Positions 6,292-16,484 of a DNA stretch of 31,665 nucleotides are shown one piece after another (the first letter of the stretch is position 1; the number at the start of each line of letters is the position of its first letter). The position numbers and the translations under genes were made by a program. This stretch comes from an archaeon. GTDB lineage: Archaea > Nanobdellota > Nanobdellia > Pacearchaeales > GW2011-AR1. The notes under the pieces are model-generated. The model saw only the letters and a list, made by a program, of their open reading frames with translations, did no database searches and was not told the DNA's origin. The DNA is taken from positions 1-31,665 of the forward strand of contig JBAXMY010000001.1 of the NCBI GenBank assembly GCA_037134055.1, written 5' to 3'.

Positions 6292-6299
6292 TATTTATA
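6292..6299 (-). promoter_or_regulatory. TATA box for fen, overlapping the upstream stop codon
   Basis: TATAAATA at -29..-22 from ATG 6270. Confidence 0.75.
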
Positions 6300-7266
6300 G
6301 CTTATGAGCCTTTCTTGAACGCCAGAAATAGAAAAATCCTGCAATTAGGCATGCAACAATCAGAACGATGTAGCTTCCCCCGGTATTTGACGCATCAGAC
6401 ACTACAAACCCAGTAAAATTGCCCATAAAAAACAACAAAGAAAAAGAAACAAAGAAGATTGCAGCCGTAGCAGCAATTTTCTCCAAACCCTGTCGTTTAG
6501 TACTTGTTTGCTCCCTTCTTTCAGGCATGCCATAAATGGGATCCGCTCTAAAATATCTATATCTCAGCTCCTTATCAGACATTTCAAATAATTCGGGGAG
6601 TTTTACCTTTGACAAATCCAGTTTTGATGCGTATTTGTAAGGCCTATAATGGATAAGCATCCTATTTCGCACATCCACATCTTCCTCAAAACCCATCGCA
6701 CGTGCAACATCTGAAAGTTGTTCTGCCAATTTTTCATTTCCACCCTTTCTTGCCTCACCCACCGTCTTTAAAAGAACACGATATTTATTTCTGATAAATG
6801 AAGAGCCACGTTCATTCAAAACCTTACCGAGAGAGTCATAAACTCTATCGAATGAGGGCTCACCATTCGGAAATAGTTTCTTTCTTTTTTCTTCAGGTAA
6901 TCCTAGATAAGCTATTTTTCTCCCAACAAATCCCAGAAACTCTTCAGAATGAAGTTCCTTAGTATTGATATAATGCCCAAGATTACCTACTTTCTTTGCT
7001 CTGACAAAATGTGCCAGCTCTTCACCCATTGATTCCGTAACATCTCCAACACCCATTTCACGATTAACTGCAATTCTATTCTTTACCATGTTGTAGTCCA
7101 TTACTTTTTTCTTACTAAACACCAATTTTGGAAACTGATTCTCTGGAATGCCAAATTCCTGGGAAAATATTGCTTTCTGTTCATCATACACCCTTTGGAC
7201 AAATGCCTTGCCTTTATTATTTAACTTAGAAATTGGCTTACTGCCTTTAATAAAATCTTCTTCCAT
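6295..7266 (-). CDS. EExxH zincin-like domain protein with C-terminal two-TM tail
   Basis: E82-E-L-A-H86, S-E-E109-F, H206-x-x-x-Y210; homologous by eye to the C-terminus of 9931..13689. Tail: LEKIAA...GNFTGFVV...FFYFWR. TATTTATA at -29. Confidence 0.85.
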   Translation of the reverse strand: MEEDFIKGSKPISKLNNKGKAFVQRVYDEQKAIFSQEFGIPENQFPKLVFSKKKVMDYNMVKNRIAVNREMGVGDVTESMGEELAHFVRAKKVGNLGHYINTKELHSEEFLGFVGRKIAYLGLPEEKRKKLFPNGEPSFDRVYDSLGKVLNERGSSFIRNKYRVLLKTVGEARKGGNEKLAEQLSDVARAMGFEEDVDVRNRMLIHYRPYKYASKLDLSKVKLPELFEMSDKELRYRYFRADPIYGMPERREQTSTKRQGLEKIAATAAIFFVSFSLLFFMGNFTGFVVSDASNTGGSYIVLIVACLIAGFFYFWRSRKAHKL

Positions 7267-7865: not shown

Positions 7866-8399
7866 TTATTTTAATCCGTCAAACTGAGCAATGAAATCTC
7901 TCAGTGACTTCCCATTTAATATTTCTTCTAAAAATTCTTGAGGAACTTCATCTTCTTCCAACTCACCAATCATTATTCTTCTAAAAGAAGGATCTCCGAC
8001 CATGGCTCTAACAACAGTTTTAGCTTTATATTTATCAAATTTTCCAGATTCCAGAGCCCTGAGCCTTTCCCCCACATCAACTAGAGAAGCAACCTCAATC
8101 ATCGCACCCATCTCTGAAGTTGATCCTGGAGTTTTACCATTTTCATATATTTTCAAGAATTCCTTTGAAACGAAAGGCTTAACACGATCCTTAAATCCAG
8201 CTAATACTTCAGATTTATCTGGAAGTTCAAATGTTTTTAGAACATCTTCCCTATATCTGTGTCCAACTGGAAGTTTCGAAGCTCGATCTAATCGTTCATA
8301 GATGTAATCCGCATTCTGCATACCCTTCTGAGAACATCGATATACAACTCTAGGGCTCAATACCTTACTATCTACCAAATCTAACAATTCAGTTGTCAT
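7866..8399 (-). CDS. Hypothetical soluble, acidic, helical protein
   Basis: 177-aa ORF, ATG 1 nt after the upstream stop; no motif recognised. Confidence 0.75.
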   Translation of the reverse strand: MTTELLDLVDSKVLSPRVVYRCSQKGMQNADYIYERLDRASKLPVGHRYREDVLKTFELPDKSEVLAGFKDRVKPFVSKEFLKIYENGKTPGSTSEMGAMIEVASLVDVGERLRALESGKFDKYKAKTVVRAMVGDPSFRRIMIGELEEDEVPQEFLEEILNGKSLRDFIAQFDGLK

Positions 8400-8400
8400 T

Positions 8401-8652
8401 CTAGTTATGTCTCCTGTCTTTTCTGTTCAATTCGGCAAGAGTTGCGGAAGCAATTATTGCAGAACCGAGAGTTGCAATTTCATAAAAACTACCCATTCCC
8501 CTATGATTATATACATTGCCAATGGAATACTTTGCACCTTCAACGGGAGAAGAGTCTCTAATCGTATTAACCACCCTAACTGCCAAATCTACCGTTCCGC
8601 AAGCTATGCTAAGGCCTATAACCGTTGCAGCCAATGTTTTTCCTAGTCCCAT
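8401..8652 (-). CDS. Small protein with two hydrophobic helices (paralog of 8778..9038)
   Basis: 83 aa; GTVDLAVRVVN...YNHRG; AGGA 5 nt before the ATG and TTTAAATA further upstream. Confidence 0.75.
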   Translation of the reverse strand: MGLGKTLAATVIGLSIACGTVDLAVRVVNTIRDSSPVEGAKYSIGNVYNHRGMGSFYEIATLGSAIIASATLAELNRKDRRHN

Positions 8653-8777
8653 GTTTTTCCTATAAAAATCTCACTAAATGCCAATATTTAAACCTTTCTA
8701 ATTGTTACCACCACGGAGTAACATGATATATGAATATTATTAAATTGGATAAAAAATATAAAAAATTAAAGAATCGT

Positions 8778-9038
8778 TCAGTATTCCCTCTTTTTGCTTG
8801 TAGCATTGATGGCAATACTTGCACCCGCAACTGCAGTAATCAAACTAAGTCCATTTCCATGAAGACCTTCATGCTTGTATGGGTTCAAAGAAGCCTTTTC
8901 CCTGAATTCCTCAGCCGGCATTTCATATCTATGGGCATGATCCTGAACCATGTTGTAGGTCCTTACTCCCAGGTCGATTGTACCAGTTGCTAGCACATAT
9001 CCTAGAGCGCCTATTGCGATGTTTTGTAGTGTGTTCAT
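8778..9038 (-). CDS. Small protein with two hydrophobic helices (paralog of 8401..8652)
   Basis: The track start at 9080 is TTG. ATG 9038 (MNTLQ) follows AGGAGG at 9058-9053 and aligns with the paralog: GTIDLGVRTYN...YKHEG. Confidence 0.75.
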   Translation of the reverse strand: MNTLQNIAIGALGYVLATGTIDLGVRTYNMVQDHAHRYEMPAEEFREKASLNPYKHEGLHGNGLSLITAVAGASIAINATSKKREY

Positions 9039-9173
9039 TGTCTTTTTTTCATCCTCCTTTCTACTTCTCCCAGGTGACAAAGATAGATGTTAATTTACCC
9101 TAAAATATAAGGGTATCACATGTAAAACCTATACCTCCTCGGCCCTGGAAAGGTCCAATAAACACCAACAAAC

Positions 9174-9181
9174 TATAAAAA
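9174..9181 (+). promoter_or_regulatory. TATA box for the pilin-like / giant-protein operon
   Basis: AAAC-TATAAAAA lies at -29..-22 from ATG 9203, not from 9188. Confidence 0.7.
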
Positions 9182-9202
9182 TCCAAAATGCCCATAGAAT
9201 GT

Positions 9203-9934
9203 ATGAATAAACAAGGTCAGATAGCTATTTTTGTTATTGTTGCCATAGCCGTCGTCATTATAATTATGGGCCTCTTCCTATTTGTGAATCGAGGACCTTC
9301 TACAAATGCGTCCTTGTCTTCAGATACCTCAAAAGTCAAAGAATATGTACAACAATGTATTAATCAAAGACAAATTGACGCCATCAGGATTGTTGGATTG
9401 CAGGGAGGATATATAGTTCTACCTGACAACTATTTAGATACGGGGCTCTACCAAGTTGCCTATGGACAATCTTTGGGCCAAAATACTCTTCCTTCAAAAG
9501 AAAAAATTGCCAGAGAAATATCATCCTACATTGAGTATACGTCCCCTGGATGCATAAATCAAGATAAATTTTTCACAATGGATATATCGCCCGGAGAAGC
9601 AAATGTAAACACAACAATAAGCAACGGAAAAATAACTTCCAGAATGATATTTCCAATATCTGTCACAAAGGAAAACTCCACTTCAATTGTTGGAGCAAAT
9701 TATGAATCCACTGTTAATGTTAGATTCGACGAAATTTACTCTTTCGCACAGGGGATTGTCAAAAAACAGATTGCTGATTCTAAATATATCGATATGACCT
9801 ATCTTTCCAGTTCAAAGTTTAAAGTGGGCATCGTACCATTTGATAATAAAACTACTACTTTTACGATAATTGATGATTCCTCTAGGATTGAAAATATATC
9901 CTATTCCTTCCAATTTGCGAGCGTGATAAAATGA
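9203..9934 (+). CDS. Type IV pilin-like (class III signal peptide) surface protein
   Basis: MNKQG/QIAIFVIVAIAVVIIIMGLFLF followed by a helical then beta-rich body with two Cys; ATGA overlap with the next gene. Confidence 0.7.
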   Translation: MNKQGQIAIFVIVAIAVVIIIMGLFLFVNRGPSTNASLSSDTSKVKEYVQQCINQRQIDAIRIVGLQGGYIVLPDNYLDTGLYQVAYGQSLGQNTLPSKEKIAREISSYIEYTSPGCINQDKFFTMDISPGEANVNTTISNGKITSRMIFPISVTKENSTSIVGANYESTVNVRFDEIYSFAQGIVKKQIADSKYIDMTYLSSSKFKVGIVPFDNKTTTFTIIDDSSRIENISYSFQFASVIK

Positions 9935-12900
9935 TAATGAAAAATAAATTCTTAGTGATATCATCCATTTTCATATTTATAATAATCGTTCAGATTGGCA
10001 TAATGAGCGCAGCAACAACTAGTACAACTCCAGACCCACAAACTACACCTTCAACTCAACAAACTTCTGCAACACAAACAAAAACAACTTCGAATGCAGA
10101 TGACACAATTGTTCCTGAAGGATATACTAAAAAAGGAGACCTCTACGAATGCAGGGGTGCCAAAGACCCGTTAGTATTAAATGGCATCAAGGTTTATGCT
10201 GAAAAGGGGAGCACCATCAAGTATTCAAAGGGAAATTTTGAGATTACTGGAAAAATAAATCAGATAGAATCTGGAAAAACAGTTCTAAAAGATATAACTG
10301 ATGCACAGCTGCAGATAGTATCTAATGAAATCGTCATGGCATCATTCACTGCCGCAGAGAAAGGAGATTACTCTTTTAATTACAACGCACAAGATTTTAA
10401 GTTCTCAGTTGACAAAGGCGGCAAAGTGTATTTCAACCCAAGGGTAAATGAAATTGGAGGAAAAGATACCTCTTTTGATTTCACGAATGCCAATAAAGAA
10501 ACTCAGTCCTTCAAATCTTCTGGAAACTTTGCAGCCAAACTGGAAAATGGAAGAGTGTCCAGAGCAGCCACTGATAGTGGAAGAATTGAATTTACAGACA
10601 GTAGTGGGAAAAAATATTCAGCTCAAGACATATACTTTGATGGAAAACAAGATCTTTCACAAACAAAGGGCTCTGCCATTTCAATAAACGGAAATGAAAT
10701 CCTCTTTAAAGGAATGGCGAGGTTAGATGGCACAGAATCATCTAAGATAAGTTACTCTGGTTTAAGCTCAGATATGTTGACAAAATATGATTCAGAAAAG
10801 AATTCATTTGAATGTGCCCAGGGAAATGCAAAGATTACAAATACGGGAAAGGAATTTCTTCTTGAAAACGGACAGATTAAAACACCAACTGGAGAACCAT
10901 CTAAAGATATCAAAGAAATGCAATTGGCCTATGCAACAAAATCCACTCCAAGCCAGAATCTGGCAGTTTACAATGATATGGATGGCGTAAAGATATATGC
11001 AGAAAAAGACGGACAAACCAAAGCAGGAATACGAGATGGACAATACATTACTTCATATGGTATTTTCGCAACACAAGAGTCCATGGCCAATTATGGTCAA
11101 CAAGTACTGGATAATCAAAGAAAAATTCTAGAAGATAAAATCTCTTCAGTCAGTAACGTGTTAGATACTAATTATGATGCTCTTTCTCCTTCTGAAAGAA
11201 ATGCTTTGAAATATCAATTAGCTGCTCTATATGCAGAAGGAACAACGGATTTTGATGACTATGGAAAAGAGAAGTATAATCAACTTCAATCATTAACAAA
11301 GGAATTGGCAGCCAGTCCTGAATATTCCTCCCTTGCCTTAGGTTTAGAAAGAAATGCGCAATTTAATCTTGGTAAGTACGAGGATGTCTATGAAAACCTG
11401 CAAGAGAGTATGAAAAACGCAAAGGATGTAGCAACCAGAACACAAGTTGATGCAGACTTCGCCAGATATTATACAGATATGCGAAACCCTAATGCAGACC
11501 CTCCAAAGGCATACACTTATTTGTCCGATGCAGTTCGTTCTGATCCAAACAATAAAGTATTAAAAAATGCCCAAAGACAAATGGCGATTGCACTATTCAA
11601 ATATGATGGCGAAATTGCTCAAAATATGCAAGAACAAGCAGCAAGTTCTTATGAAACTGATCAGCTGGTTACTAGCAATGATGAATATGCGGAAATGTGG
11701 AAAGCACTTTCGCCAACAAACTATAAAATTGGTTTGACTTCGGCATACTTAGCTCTTGGAACAGATTATATGCAGAATAAAGAAATAAACTTTGAGAATT
11801 TCATGAAATCTCAAAGCGAAAACAAACGCGGAGATGATTATGTTTCATATCTATTGGGAAAAAAAGAAAATGGAGATTACAAATATTCTTTTGAGGAAAT
11901 TATAAACTTTAAGCCGAGAGACTACATGGAAGTGCTTGGAGTTTCCTCAGACAAGGCTATTGCAATCCAAAGTTATGTGGCTAACACTCTCCAAACAAAT
12001 AATGGACAATTTATTAAAAGTGGTGGAGCTGGTAAGTTTTCAGCCGATTTCGTGAACGATCTTTCATTTTTAGATAGTTGGGGGGTAAAAGCGTTAGGAG
12101 GTGCTACATCTCCTCTCGCCACTACAGCTACACTTGGCCCAGTAGCCTTAGCTCCTGGAAGTTTTGGGATATCTGCAGCTACCGGATGGAGAGCAATTAC
12201 GGGTGCAAGCGAGATTACTGGTGGAACAACAGTTTCAGAAGCATTGATATCTGGTTTAGCCAGCAGATCAGCTTTGGCAAATGGTGCGATTACTTCAATA
12301 TCTGAAGCTAGCGCTGCGATGAGTAACGCGGGCAAGAGCTTATTGATAACTAAAGCTAGTTTTGGCAGTACGGCCGCAGACCTAACAGTTGGAGCTGCAG
12401 GTCTTGCAGGAGATGTTGGGGTAGGTACCGCTGCAGGTCTTGCTATTCAAGCTACTGTGCCAGGTCCGGCTGGAGAAATGTTGTCTATGCTTGTTGTTCC
12501 GGGACAGATGAAGGGTCTTTCTAAGGAAGGTGCATCCTTGCTTAGTTCTGAACTCAAACAAGAAGCTCGAGCAGGTCTAAAAGATATAATTCCAGGCACA
12601 AAACTCGGCGAGTTTAGTCTAGTTTTCGAAGATGCCTCTGCTGCTGAAAAAATGTTAAAAAATACTAAAATATTCGGCGCTCATACATCAGATCCAATGA
12701 GAGTTTATCAAACTGGTGATATGGAACTTCTTTTGACCGAAATTGCTGGTCAAGATAATGCGCTCTCAGCAAAATTCTATTCTAGGAATCTAGCCAACCT
12801 AGATTCTGTCTCGGGTTTAACAAGTGCAGAAGCGAGAGCTGAAGCATTTACAGCTAGTAGAATGCTTGATGGTCCAAACGGAGAATTGAATCGTGTACTT

Positions 12901-13689
12901 TTCGCACAAGTTACTGATGATGCTGCAGCAACTGCTGAGAGACTTTGGGAACCAATATTATCTAGAGGAGCCGCGCAAGCAGACGCAGTTTCAGTCAAAC
13001 AATTAGGAGTGGAAGGTGAAAAAAGAGTACAAGTGCTATACGAGTTAATGAAGTTACGATTTGCAGAGAAAACTGGTATGCCTGTTGAATCAATGCCTAA
13101 TTTACAGTTTGGTGGGCCAACCGCATATAGTCGAATGAGTCATAGAATGACGATTGATTCAAATCAACCAATGTCAGAGATTGTGGAGAGCTTAGCAGAA
13201 GAGCTTGGACATTCCATACGTTGGGTTAAAAATCCAATCCCATTTAAACCTAGAACTGGAGAAGTTTCTGATGAGTTTGTTGGCTGGATGAGTAGAGAGC
13301 TTGCTTATGAAGATCCATATTTGAGAAAGTTTTTCGTTCGTGAACCTTCGATATCTTACGAATTTAATGGAAAATCGTTTAAAGAACTCATTAGTGGATA
13401 TTCAGAAGAGATAAGATATTTGAAGGGGAAAAAAGTAGAATATACAGAACGTCTATCTGAACCGGACATTTCTCTAGCTGACAAAGTAGATTATGGAAAA
13501 CGATTAAAAGAAACAGAAAAAGACTTAATAGATGAAGTTAGAGGTTTTAACCACGTTATAGGTTATTGGTCTAGTGGTAGTTTGCGTATAACAGACTTAA
13601 GTGCTCAAGATATACGATTATTATACGAAACATCCGGACAAAACTTAGTTTCTAAGTACATTCAACCATATATTAAATATGCAAAATAA
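9931..13689 (+). CDS. 1252-aa exported modular protein with C-terminal EExxH zincin-like domain (polymorphic-toxin-like)
   Basis: Signal peptide, Thr/Gln/Pro linker, beta-rich region, helical TPR-like region, Gly/Ala hydrophobic segment (aa ~717-858), then E1090-E-L-G-H1094, S-D-E1115-F and H1208-x-x-x-Y1212. Confidence 0.85.
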   Translation: MIMKNKFLVISSIFIFIIIVQIGIMSAATTSTTPDPQTTPSTQQTSATQTKTTSNADDTIVPEGYTKKGDLYECRGAKDPLVLNGIKVYAEKGSTIKYSKGNFEITGKINQIESGKTVLKDITDAQLQIVSNEIVMASFTAAEKGDYSFNYNAQDFKFSVDKGGKVYFNPRVNEIGGKDTSFDFTNANKETQSFKSSGNFAAKLENGRVSRAATDSGRIEFTDSSGKKYSAQDIYFDGKQDLSQTKGSAISINGNEILFKGMARLDGTESSKISYSGLSSDMLTKYDSEKNSFECAQGNAKITNTGKEFLLENGQIKTPTGEPSKDIKEMQLAYATKSTPSQNLAVYNDMDGVKIYAEKDGQTKAGIRDGQYITSYGIFATQESMANYGQQVLDNQRKILEDKISSVSNVLDTNYDALSPSERNALKYQLAALYAEGTTDFDDYGKEKYNQLQSLTKELAASPEYSSLALGLERNAQFNLGKYEDVYENLQESMKNAKDVATRTQVDADFARYYTDMRNPNADPPKAYTYLSDAVRSDPNNKVLKNAQRQMAIALFKYDGEIAQNMQEQAASSYETDQLVTSNDEYAEMWKALSPTNYKIGLTSAYLALGTDYMQNKEINFENFMKSQSENKRGDDYVSYLLGKKENGDYKYSFEEIINFKPRDYMEVLGVSSDKAIAIQSYVANTLQTNNGQFIKSGGAGKFSADFVNDLSFLDSWGVKALGGATSPLATTATLGPVALAPGSFGISAATGWRAITGASEITGGTTVSEALISGLASRSALANGAITSISEASAAMSNAGKSLLITKASFGSTAADLTVGAAGLAGDVGVGTAAGLAIQATVPGPAGEMLSMLVVPGQMKGLSKEGASLLSSELKQEARAGLKDIIPGTKLGEFSLVFEDASAAEKMLKNTKIFGAHTSDPMRVYQTGDMELLLTEIAGQDNALSAKFYSRNLANLDSVSGLTSAEARAEAFTASRMLDGPNGELNRVLFAQVTDDAAATAERLWEPILSRGAAQADAVSVKQLGVEGEKRVQVLYELMKLRFAEKTGMPVESMPNLQFGGPTAYSRMSHRMTIDSNQPMSEIVESLAEELGHSIRWVKNPIPFKPRTGEVSDEFVGWMSRELAYEDPYLRKFFVREPSISYEFNGKSFKELISGYSEEIRYLKGKKVEYTERLSEPDISLADKVDYGKRLKETEKDLIDEVRGFNHVIGYWSSGSLRITDLSAQDIRLLYETSGQNLVSKYIQPYIKYAK

Positions 13690-13743: not shown

Positions 13744-16140
13744 ATGACGAGCATTAAAGGATTCATTGTGCAGGCAGACTATCAGATAATTGACGACAAA
13801 ACCTATGTACAACTATTTGGAAGACTGGAAAATGGCCAATCATTTGCCACAGTCAACAAAGTCAAGCCATACATGTTCATAGCTGAGAAAGAACTAAAGA
13901 AAGCCAACAAACTTCTCAGCAAATATGAAACAGAAAAAACCTCGTTGAAAACATTCGCAGGGGAAAAAGTCATAAAAATAAGTCATGACCTTCAAGCAGA
14001 GCTAGGAAAACTAGCATCCGCACTTCACAAACTTGATATTCCAACCTATGAATCGGATATCAAGCCACATACGCGATTCATAATTGACCAGGACCTTTTA
14101 GGAAGCCTAGAAATTCAAGGCGAATACGACCCTTCTGAGAAAGTCGACCGCGTCTATAGGGAAGCTAAAATCAAGCAAAGTGATTACAAACCAAATTTGA
14201 AAACTCTATCCCTGGATATAGAAACTGACGGGCAGACAAAGAAACTTCTCTGCATCGGCTTGTATGCACCAGGATATAAGCAAACATTTATGATTACCAA
14301 CCAAAAACTGCGGGAAACCGTTTCATGCAAGAATGAAACCGACTGCCTTCTCAAGTTTAAAGAAGCAATAAACAAATTTGATCCAGACATTATCACCGGA
14401 TGGAATGTCATTGACTTTGATATGAAGTACCTACAAGATTTATTCAAAGAAAATAGAATTCCGTTTGACATTGGAAGAACGAATGCAGAAGCCAAGACAA
14501 GAATTGAAGATAACTTCTTCCGTTCTTCAAGTATGGACATTCCTGGAAGAATGGTCCTTGATGGATTGAATATGATAAAAGACCCATTCATCAAAGAAGC
14601 CCCATCAATAAAAAATGCAGAATTCGAATCCTATAAATTAGAAGATGTCGCCCAGGAAATTCTAGGAAAAGGAAAGATTCTCAAAGGAAAGGGAAGACAC
14701 GATGAAATCTCTCAGCTCTATAAAAAAGACCAGCAAAAACTTGTTGACTACAACATGAAAGACTGTGAACTAGCCTATGAAATTCTTGAAAAAACAAAGA
14801 TGATTGACCTGGCAATAGAGCGTTCGCAATTGGTGGGCCTAGAATTAGACAGGCTAACTGCTTCCATTGCCGCATTCGACTCCCTGTATATAAGAGAAGC
14901 AAGGAAACACGGCTTAGTCTCTCCAAGCACAGTATACGGACAAAAAGATGAACGTCTCAAGGGAGGATATGTCTTTTCTAGCAAGGCAGGAATATTCCGT
15001 AATGTCCTAGTCCTAGACTTCAAATCCCTATACCCTTCAATTATCTGCACATTTAACATAGATCCGGCAGCTCACATTAAAAATAAAAAAGAACTGAAGA
15101 AAGAAAAAGATCCCGTAGAATCTCCAAATAAGGAATATTTCAAGAACCAGGAAGGCATTTTGCCAGGAATAATTGGCAAACTTCATTTTGCAAGAGAAAA
15201 AGCAAAGCAAGAAAAACGAGAACTCTCCAGCTACGCAATAAAAATAATCATGAACTCATTCTGGGGTGTTCTTGCTTCACCAAACTGCAGATATTTCGAT
15301 TTCAACATGGCCAGCTCCATTACGGCATTCGCAAGATGGGCAATCCAAGATACGGCGAAGGAAATTGAAAAATTAGGGTATAAAGTAATTTACAGTGATA
15401 CGGATTCCGTATTCATAGAAACTGGCCTTGACAAAGAAAAGGCAGGCAAACTTGGATATGAAATACAGAATACAATCAATAAGTTCTACCATGACTACGT
15501 GCAGAAGCATTTCAAGAGAAAATCTTTCCTGGAATTGCAATTTGAAAAACACTTCCTCTCTTTAATGATTCCAGGTGTGAGAATGAAGCCAGCAAAGAAG
15601 AAAGCAAGCAAAGAAAAGGAAGAGCCGGAGAAAGAAGTAGAAAAGGTAGCTGCAAAGAAGCGTTACGCCGGACTTCTTTGGAAAAATGGAAAAGAAGAAC
15701 TGCAAATTACTGGCCTGGAAGCAATAAGAGGAGATTGGACAGAAGCCGCGCAGGAATTCCAGAAGGAATTATTGATGAAAACATTCCACAATGAACCTGT
15801 TGAGAAGTTTATTGCGCAATATGTAAAAGACATTCGTGCAGGCAAGATGGATAAACTTCTCATTTACAGAAAATCAATTAGAAAAAATCTGGCAGAATAC
15901 ACGAAGATGACTCCCCCACACGTAAAAGCAGCCCGTCTACTTGATGTATTAGATTCAAATGTAATAGAATACTATATCACAACATCAGGTCCAGAACCAA
16001 TTCAAAAACACACTCACCCTCTGGATTATGACCATTACATAACTAAGCAAATCGCCCCAATTGCCAATCAAGTTCTCTCATTGCTAGGAAAATCCTTTGA
16101 GGATTTATCACAGCCAACTAAACAGGCTAAATTGTTCTAA
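13744..16140 (+). CDS. polB: Family B DNA polymerase, bacterial Pol II-like, with proofreading exonuclease
   Basis: ExoI DIET, ExoII WNVIDFD, ExoIII YNMKD; pol motifs DFKSLYPS, KIIMNSFWG, YSDTDS, KKRYAG; Pol II-like GLEAIRGDWT, PPHVKAAR and GPEP...LDYDHY; C-terminal QAKLF. Confidence 0.97.
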   Translation: MTSIKGFIVQADYQIIDDKTYVQLFGRLENGQSFATVNKVKPYMFIAEKELKKANKLLSKYETEKTSLKTFAGEKVIKISHDLQAELGKLASALHKLDIPTYESDIKPHTRFIIDQDLLGSLEIQGEYDPSEKVDRVYREAKIKQSDYKPNLKTLSLDIETDGQTKKLLCIGLYAPGYKQTFMITNQKLRETVSCKNETDCLLKFKEAINKFDPDIITGWNVIDFDMKYLQDLFKENRIPFDIGRTNAEAKTRIEDNFFRSSSMDIPGRMVLDGLNMIKDPFIKEAPSIKNAEFESYKLEDVAQEILGKGKILKGKGRHDEISQLYKKDQQKLVDYNMKDCELAYEILEKTKMIDLAIERSQLVGLELDRLTASIAAFDSLYIREARKHGLVSPSTVYGQKDERLKGGYVFSSKAGIFRNVLVLDFKSLYPSIICTFNIDPAAHIKNKKELKKEKDPVESPNKEYFKNQEGILPGIIGKLHFAREKAKQEKRELSSYAIKIIMNSFWGVLASPNCRYFDFNMASSITAFARWAIQDTAKEIEKLGYKVIYSDTDSVFIETGLDKEKAGKLGYEIQNTINKFYHDYVQKHFKRKSFLELQFEKHFLSLMIPGVRMKPAKKKASKEKEEPEKEVEKVAAKKRYAGLLWKNGKEELQITGLEAIRGDWTEAAQEFQKELLMKTFHNEPVEKFIAQYVKDIRAGKMDKLLIYRKSIRKNLAEYTKMTPPHVKAARLLDVLDSNVIEYYITTSGPEPIQKHTHPLDYDHYITKQIAPIANQVLSLLGKSFEDLSQPTKQAKLF

Positions 16141-16484
16141 TTCAGAGCTAAAGAGACCTTAATGGCCATATCTACTTTTTTCATTAATTCTGAATTCAAG
16201 AACGAAATCTTCTTTACTACTCTTGATTTATCTATAGTCCTTATTTGATTTGATAAAATAGTAGAATCGTTATTTAAGCCAGATTCTTCACTTTTAACGA
16301 ATACATTTGTTGGATATCCCTTAGTATATATCTTAGAAGTTAATGGAATGACAATTAACAACGGACTAAATCTATTAAAAACATCGTTCTGAACAACTAC
16401 TGCTGGCCTTACTTTGCCCTGTTCACTTCCCCTAACTGGTTCAAAATTAACGAGAAGAATGTCTCCCCTTTTTATCTCCATCAT
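16137..16484 (-). CDS. mazF: MazF/PemK-family endoribonuclease toxin
   Basis: IKRGDILLVNFEPVRGSEQGKVRPAVVVQND...IPLTS...QIRTIDKSR. The start could be 16484 or 16481. Confidence 0.93.
   Translation of the reverse strand: MMEIKRGDILLVNFEPVRGSEQGKVRPAVVVQNDVFNRFSPLLIVIPLTSKIYTKGYPTNVFVKSEESGLNNDSTILSNQIRTIDKSRVVKKISFLNSELMKKVDMAIKVSLALN

Follow-up and report, generated by a model that had tools for sequence, protein, structure and literature searches.

A charge-poor, Ala/Gly/Ser/Thr-rich junction ahead of unrelated C termini in a predicted exported carrier protein of DPANN archaea

INTRODUCTION

It is still an open matter how DPANN archaea, which live in attachment to other cells and possess hardly any recognizable secretion or injection machinery, affect their partners. 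The locus described here raises this question in a concrete form. The window, i.e., the whole stretch of DNA analyzed, comprises 31,665 nucleotides (nt) of a contig assigned to the Pacearchaeales (JBAXMY010000001.1) and contains an open reading frame (ORF) at 9931-13689 on the forward strand, which encodes P0001, a protein of 1252 amino acids (aa). A first inspection of the letters, made without database searches (the sequence-only reading), had singled out within P0001 a Gly/Ala-rich hydrophobic stretch of about 140 aa as a possible translocation module. What is this stretch, and what could it do in such a protein? Our answer to the first question is that it is a conserved junction placed before the cargo of a carrier that resembles polymorphic effectors, and that it is not of transmembrane (TM) grade.

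THE CHARGE-POOR SEGMENT AND ITS PLACE IN P0001

Both the coordinates and the composition reported for the stretch were borne out. Nucleotides 12079-12504 encode aa 717-858 of P0001 (142 aa, beginning with WGVKALGG and ending with MLSMLVVPG), and only 11 of these 142 residues are charged (7.7%, versus 25.6% in the remainder of the protein). Ala (21%), Gly (16%), Ser (11%), and Thr (11%) together make up 59% of the segment, and large hydrophobic residues account for ca. 27%. Mean hydropathy is above zero in 40-residue windows of the segment and negative in nearly all other windows of P0001. The zone of low charge (≤12%) is somewhat wider and extends over aa 675-875. When a comparable region was defined as a 120-aa window with a charge of ≤9% and G+A of ≥30%, 6 of the 837 genomic ORFs that encode 150 aa or more had one; four of the six are Gly-repeat proteins and only two are hydrophobic. 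The GC content of the segment is raised (0.449), but the increase comes from codon positions 1 and 2 only. At the third position the GC content (0.275) is the same as across the rest of the gene (0.266), so the DNA is native and a foreign origin can be ruled out. A search for tandem repeats in the DNA of the segment found none, which also rules out a recent repeat expansion.

Along P0001, the following parts can be told apart (model confidence is given as the predicted local distance difference test, pLDDT):

9931..10017, forward strand: putative signal peptide or signal anchor, then a Thr/Pro/Gln-rich linker (aa 1-29)
10072..10881, forward strand: beta-rich N-terminal carrier domain, common to relatives (aa 48-317; BLASTP and genome search)
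11068..12078, forward strand: charged, probably helical region (aa ~380-716; helices at low pLDDT only)
12079..12504, forward strand: charge-poor Ala/Gly/Ser/Thr-rich junction (aa 717-858; composition, and position in five of five long carriers)
12505..12675, forward strand: short post-junction element including EFSLVFEDASAAEKMLK (aa 859-915; alignment with relatives does not reach beyond it)
12676..12957, forward strand: region separating the carrier from the zincin-like domain (aa 916-1009; no family assignment, low pLDDT)
12958..13686, forward strand: C-terminal zincin-like EELGH domain (aa 1010-1252; E1090-E1091-L-G-H1094 at nt 13198-13212)

The N terminus has a hydrophobic stretch (aa 7-25) preceded by a basic n-region, with a Kyte-Doolittle hydropathy over 19 residues, KD(19), of up to 2.79. 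It is the single TM-grade window of the protein and the only one with a negative insertion-energy sum (-2.25). An N terminus of this kind, together with the Thr/Pro/Gln-rich linker behind it (aa 30-60), indicates that P0001 is probably exported, in agreement with its earlier description as an exported protein (N-terminal signal, KD 2.8). The label "TPR-like" given to the region upstream of the segment could not be verified, since there is no Pfam TPR match in P0001 and helices are predicted at low confidence only; among the relatives, P0020 alone had a weak match to TPR_2 (E value of 0.047). Nor does the segment lie just before the enzyme domain, as had been stated, because the zincin-like domain begins near aa 1010, ca. 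150 residues further on. Of the intervening residues, the post-junction element has a conserved core (aa ~878-915), with E878 and F895 invariant in the carrier alignments, and no homologue of aa 916-1009 was found.

A CONSERVED JUNCTION IN A FAMILY OF CARRIERS

Relatives of P0001 are not easily detected. Word-indexed homology searches with aa 680-1252 and aa 30-720 returned the self-match only, and an exhaustive phmmer search with aa 690-1252 gave three matches, all to the C-terminal domain alone. It was the gene directly upstream that led the search to syntenic operons:

9188..9934, forward strand: P0002, coding for a pilin-like protein of 248 aa; the start of the P0001 gene overlaps its stop

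Homologues of P0002 are located directly upstream of related carriers in six genomes, G120 (E value of 1e-38), G127, G181, G254, G261, and G232. Six-frame searches of related genomes recovered homologues of the beta-rich N-terminal domain, including a short form in G127 (E value of 3.4e-22), and direct similarity of this domain to that of P0001 was found for P0019 and P0018 (BLASTP E values of 5e-17 and 9e-12). Judged by sequence, P0001 and its pilin-like gene belong to a small family of exported carriers of related DPANN genomes. An N-terminal secretion signal is present also in P0018 to P0021, the four other long members. Two short carriers (641 and 593 aa) stop within the helical region and have neither C-terminal cargo nor the apolar stretch. 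A profile of the junction run over ca. 450 genomes retrieved only the four known carriers; P0021 was detected through the first half of its Hint domain and not through the junction profile.

With the signal peptide set aside, the 60-aa window of highest hydropathy lies at the equivalent junction position in all five long carriers:

P0001 (1252 aa, this window): start at aa 804, KD 0.88, charge 8%, G+A 37%
P0018 (1522 aa, genome G120): start at aa 954, KD 0.78, charge 13%, G+A 33%
P0019 (1702 aa, genome G254): start at aa 906, KD 0.90, charge 13%, G+A 33%
P0020 (1165 aa, genome G261): start at aa 898, KD 0.83, charge 8%, G+A 33%
P0021 (1145 aa, genome G232): start at aa 909, KD 1.13, charge 7%, G+A 33%

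In the two short forms, the maxima of such windows are KD 0.05 and -0.15. The apolar stretch is therefore present in 5/5 cargo-bearing carriers and absent from 2/2 cargo-less ones. Beyond the post-junction element, the sequences of the long carriers are unrelated to each other. The same position in all the long forms, with unrelated C termini after it, identifies the segment as a conserved pre-cargo junction. The homology of the segment itself rests on position, short motifs, and weak collinear high-scoring segment pairs (P0001 697-814 with P0018 867-996, E value of 0.15; P0001 704-925 with P0019 903-1093, E value of 0.61) and not on statistics, and the junction alignment has no conserved stretch of 7 to 10 columns.

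Some further observations were made on these genes. The last ca. 40 residues of the P0019 ORF (L053:1514-6622, forward strand) overlap a convergent gene (L053:6491-7210, reverse strand) and look like read-through, so that the true C terminus may be located earlier. Of the 301 genomes of the order, 296 have the pilin-like P0002 family (ca. 250 aa, with a class-III-like leader), some of them in nine or more copies, and in the loci inspected its members are directly upstream of a variable exported protein. The pair formed by a pilin-like gene and a variable exported protein looks like a general two-gene cassette.

UNRELATED C TERMINI AND RESEMBLANCE TO POLYMORPHIC TOXINS

What follows the junction differs from carrier to carrier. 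P0001 ends in the EELGH zincin-like domain and P0018 in ca. 500 residues that match no family (a HicA-like end was suspected in the latter but is unsupported by Pfam and is not claimed here). The C terminus of P0019 is PRTase-CE-like, with a score of 25.6 bits that falls just below the cutoff of 27, while those of P0020 and P0021 consist of the first half of a Hint domain. P0020 is followed on its 3' side by two ORFs. Both code for a signal peptide and the latter half of a pretoxin-HINT domain, but their tips differ; the PT-HINT matches of these two cassettes reach 32.4 and 48.5 bits (cutoff, 27.7). In this region (L054:5060-8687, contig C47 of G261), a gene pair coding for an MNT (NTP_transf_2) and a HEPN-like protein lies between the P0020 carrier and its cassettes, and the ORF at 6598-7023 of L054, directly past the first cassette, had no family match. 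A similar arrangement, seen by sequence, is found in P0021, where the N-terminal half of Hint is followed by a HINT-C cassette downstream.

A carrier of another type was noticed in G252 (contig C12, L094:4832-8680, reverse strand). It is a Cys-rich protein of 1282 aa, nonhomologous to P0001, that also ends in the N-terminal half of Hint, with two TM-like hydrophobic stretches ca. 100 aa before it and cassettes made of a signal peptide and Hint-C downstream. Apolar elements close to the cargo end may thus be a recurrent property of different types of carrier.

A conserved carrier, exchangeable heads, and HINT processing are the signature of Sec-dependent polymorphic toxins, in which pre-toxin regions upstream of the variable toxin domains have also been described (Zhang et al. 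2012, PMC3482391). Like these systems (PMC3482391), P0001 has a signal peptide, a carrier portion, N-terminal and central, that is conserved, and homologues whose C termini are unrelated, and its relatives bear pretoxin-HINT domains and extra C-terminal cassettes. It differs in that P0001 itself has neither a HINT domain nor an immunity-like gene downstream, in the DPANN host, in the pilin-like partner gene, and in a junction that falls outside the described pre-toxin families. Neither a pretoxin-HINT domain nor orphan C-terminal cassettes were found in P0001 or elsewhere in the window. Within the family, the split pretoxin-HINT carrier P0020 agrees with P0001 in its upstream pilin-like gene, domain order, and apolar junction, but it has the first half of Hint plus separately exported Hint-C cassettes, whereas the cargo of P0001 is fused in frame. 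From its sequence features, P0001 seems best placed among polymorphic-effector carriers. To our knowledge, polymorphic toxin-type systems are barely documented in DPANN archaea.

HYDROPHOBICITY AND SMALL-RESIDUE MOTIFS OF THE JUNCTION

The segment had been credited with many small-xxx-small motifs, but this impression is a composition effect. It contains 28 [GAS]xxx[GAS] pairs, fewer than the 32.4 ± 3.0 found in shuffles of the same residues, and the same is true of three-step zippers (7 versus 15 expected) and of GxxxG (1 versus 3.5 expected).

Hydrophobicity, in turn, falls short of what a classical anchor or stop-transfer sequence requires, as no window of 19 to 21 residues in the P0001 segment is of TM grade. 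The best 19-residue window (aa 821-839) reaches KD 1.30 and includes one Asp. Insertion-energy sums, which are rough because they use approximate values of the Hessa biological scale, are at least ca. +6.6 for the segment versus -2.25 for the signal peptide of P0001; for comparison, the TM hairpin of the EELGH paralogue described below sums to -0.4 and -0.9. The junction maxima of KD(19) in P0018, P0019, and P0020 are similar (1.10 to 1.32), and a KD of 1.6 was not reached in P0001, N terminus aside, or in the four relatives examined. Without TM-grade hydrophobicity, an ordinary stop-transfer anchor in the membrane of the producer is unlikely. This outcome, which the sequence-only reading had named as one that would speak against its own proposal, is thus disfavored (KD 1.30; ca. 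+6.6 versus -2.25).

THE EELGH DOMAIN AND ITS STAND-ALONE RELATIVES

Over its full length, the C-terminal domain of P0001 can be aligned with small DPANN proteins that consist of little else, of which about a dozen (P0005 to P0016; 170 to 340 aa) were found in records of Pacearchaeota or Nanoarchaeia type. The family seems to be restricted to DPANN records. One member is encoded in the window:

6295..7266, reverse strand: stand-alone EELGH paralogue, 323 aa (E value of 9e-12), with no signal peptide and with a C-terminal two-helix membrane hairpin

The motifs GEELGHxxR and E..EFxG are invariant in the family, and EELGH itself in all 13 members. Pfam does not recognize the domain, and the canonical HExxH motif is absent, with Glu in the place of the first His. 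AlphaFold modeled the domain with a pLDDT of 87 to 97. The longest structural matches of the model are gluzincin catalytic domains (ERAP1, with a Z score of 9.5, M3, M32, M1, and DUF885), and the alignments with the M1, M3, and M32 catalytic domains are long, with middling Z scores of 7.7 to 9.5. In the AlphaFold database, the matches were DUF4157 (probability of 0.93) and IrrE-N (probability of 0.96), both with a template modeling score of <0.5. The models thus support a zincin-like assignment at the level of the fold, as had been proposed from the letters, although the match to gluzincins is of middling strength and the expected HExxH motif is replaced by EELGH.

Most of the stand-alone relatives lack a signal peptide and have the C-terminal two-helix membrane hairpin, which is bordered by positive residues on its two cytoplasmic sides. 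The loop of the hairpin is I-T-G-N-V-I-like. Two members adjoin genes of translation or transcription, namely, the EF-1alpha/EF-2 genes or the RNA polymerase operon. We infer from sequence that the EELGH head is a cytoplasm-type enzyme.

COMPARISON WITH KNOWN TRANSLOCATION MODULES

The translocation regions of colicins, diphtheria toxin, and large clostridial toxins, as well as the FHA-2/pretoxin part of CdiA, are hydrophobic or uncharged modules with the receptor-binding or carrier part on one side and the C-terminal catalytic domain on the other. The junction of P0001 is likewise placed between a carrier and a C-terminal domain, but unlike those translocation regions it has no helical hairpin of TM-grade hydrophobicity and no sequence match to solved chains (searches of the PDB with the segment gave nothing below an E value of 0.25). 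Another possible parallel is the type VI secretion system effector Tde1, in which an N-terminal glycine-zipper element is reported to permeabilize the target membrane and to be needed for delivery (PMC10240207). In function, this element and the pre-toxin or translocation regions of polymorphic toxins would be the closest analogues described so far. Like the segment, the Tde1 element (PMC10240207) is Gly rich, uncharged, and in cis with an enzymatic toxin. However, it has consecutive GxxxG repeats where P0001 has a single GxxxG and no zipper periodicity, and P0001 is far longer in this part and would use another secretion route.

Family scans did not identify the segment either. Pfam and NCBIfam had no family for it, and hmmscan of four junctions with E values up to 10 detected no pretoxin family (e.g., PT-TG, PF14449). 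A language-model feature search with the segment alone pointed to clusters of hypothetical proteins (0.90), PT-TG (0.86), and LXG (0.82), leads that hmmscan did not confirm. Two AlphaFold2 runs, one with an alignment of the C-domain family and one with an alignment of four carriers, gave the segment a pLDDT of 23 to 46 and a mean of 31.6, respectively, and Foldseek of the whole first model returned noise only. Of the proposed translocation module, then, the architecture stands, with a shared carrier and junction and unrelated C termini, while zipper periodicity and a match to a solved translocation domain or a Pfam pretoxin family were not found.

A region of similar appearance occurs in the same genome in P0017, a Cys-rich exported protein of 1312 aa with no Pfam family (contig C3 of G000, 8125-12060; L003:2126-6061). 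Of 61 related genomes, 55 have homologues of P0017, and these often occur in tandem as genes coding for ca. 1100 to 1400 aa. As in P0001, a G/A-rich and nearly uncharged region (150 to 180 aa) lies mid-protein between two large parts of exported type, but in the P0017 family it ends in a genuine TM helix (KD 2.8). Homology between the two regions was rejected, since the pairwise z score of 3.1 was judged compositional and the family profile gave an E value of >10 with the bias filter off.

WHAT THE JUNCTION MAY DO

The carrier would consist of the signal peptide, the beta-rich domain, the helical region, and the junction, all of them common to the relatives, and the parts beyond the junction would be exchangeable; in P0001, these would be ca. 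150 residues plus the EELGH zincin-like domain as cargo. The junction, being too weakly hydrophobic to stop in the translocon of the producer, would probably be exported with the rest of the protein. Once outside, the apolar stretch could contact a membrane, either that of the target cell or the surface of the producer where separately exported cargo emerges, and this contact would help to present or pass the C-terminal cargo towards the cytoplasm of another cell. In the Hint-bearing relatives, the junction may stay with the carrier and hold its end at the membrane surface. Cytoplasm-type heads on a Sec-exported chain would need a route into another cell, and we rate a membrane-contact or cargo-entry role as the single most likely function of the junction, at a probability somewhat below an even chance, because these carriers have no other apolar element. 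That the whole chain is exported, that it touches a membrane, and that anything is translocated are steps that we infer rather than observe. A bolder version makes the junction a self-contained membrane-entry module that inserts into or threads the membrane of a host or competitor and carries the fused or spliced head into the cytoplasm. We consider this version rather unlikely; if true, it would amount to a secretion-machine-independent delivery route of DPANN episymbionts.

Several results weigh against a role at the membrane. Small-xxx-small enrichment or glycine-zipper periodicity was found in none of the five junctions (P0001 and four relatives), and the P0001 segment has no helical or beta amphipathic periodicity. 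Its extreme apolarity is not conserved, as the junctions of the relatives are 11 to 17% charged, and pairwise alignments of the segment alone among the carriers are weak (z score of ≤2.6). In the Hint-bearing relatives, Hint separates the junction from the cargo, and the freed cargo may therefore leave the junction behind. No immunity-like gene was found directly after P0001, where there is a PolB gene instead. AlphaFold gave no confident fold for the segment, both runs being uninformative either way.

The alternative that survives best takes the junction to be soluble and structural and to play no part at a membrane, i.e., to be a helical domain packed through small residues, a semi-flexible spacer, or a dock for a partner such as the pilin-like protein, of which the P0001 copy would simply have lost charges and gained Gly/Ala insertions. 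We regard it as only slightly less probable than the membrane-contact or cargo-entry role. The higher charge of the relatives (11 to 17%) fits it well, as do the lack of a TM-grade window, the weak conservation of sequence within the segment, and an extra G/A-rich stretch that P0001 has at aa ~815-858 and the relatives do not. In addition, P0019 has a clear amphipathic-helix periodicity (z score of 3.8), and among the conserved features are two small motifs, S-x-A-S-A-A-[MLI]-S and S-[FL]-G, as well as invariant small residues. Yet ca. 27% of large hydrophobic residues with <8% charge over 142 aa would be unusual for a soluble surface or a disordered linker, the true linker of P0001 (aa 30-60) is different, being Thr/Pro/Gln rich, and the feature is confined to the carriers that bear cargo.

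A role as a processing or release site in the "pre-toxin" sense, a poorly structured stretch where a cut made after export would free the C-terminal part, seems improbable. Pre-toxin regions are known upstream of variable toxin domains (PMC3482391), the low pLDDT in both AlphaFold runs would fit an exposed segment, and the feature search gave the PT-TG and LXG clusters (0.82 to 0.86) as a lead only; but hmmscan found no pretoxin family in four junctions (E values up to 10), the relatives already have a dedicated Hint ca. 100 to 150 aa further on, and neither a protease motif nor conservation of a cleavage site was seen. An ordinary membrane span in the producer, with the EELGH domain at the cytoplasmic face in the manner of a receptor-protease, is very unlikely, since, although the stand-alone EELGH relatives are membrane anchored and face the cytoplasm and the genome's other G/A-rich hydrophobic region (P0017 family) holds true TM helices, no window of P0001 or of four relatives reaches KD 1.6, insertion-energy sums are at least +6, the best P0001 window contains an Asp, and the profile of the P0017 region does not match P0001.

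The junction is a concrete and testable element, found only in exported carriers with exchangeable heads. If membrane active, it would explain how zincin-like, PRTase-like, and HINT-linked heads reach a target; if it is a mere spacer, the delivery step must be elsewhere, e.g., in the pilin-like partner. Either outcome narrows the search.

OTHER GENES NEAR P0001

A gene for a family B DNA polymerase (polB) begins at 13744, 55 nt past the stop of P0001, and FEN1-like and CDC48-like genes are also found nearby. This gene content, along with the size of the incomplete genome (1.0 Mb; relatives, 0.4 to 1.6 Mb), points to an archaeon of DPANN type. The polB gene is directly followed, on the other strand, by a clear MazF/PemK toxin gene (16137-16484, reverse strand; Pfam E value of 1.2e-35).

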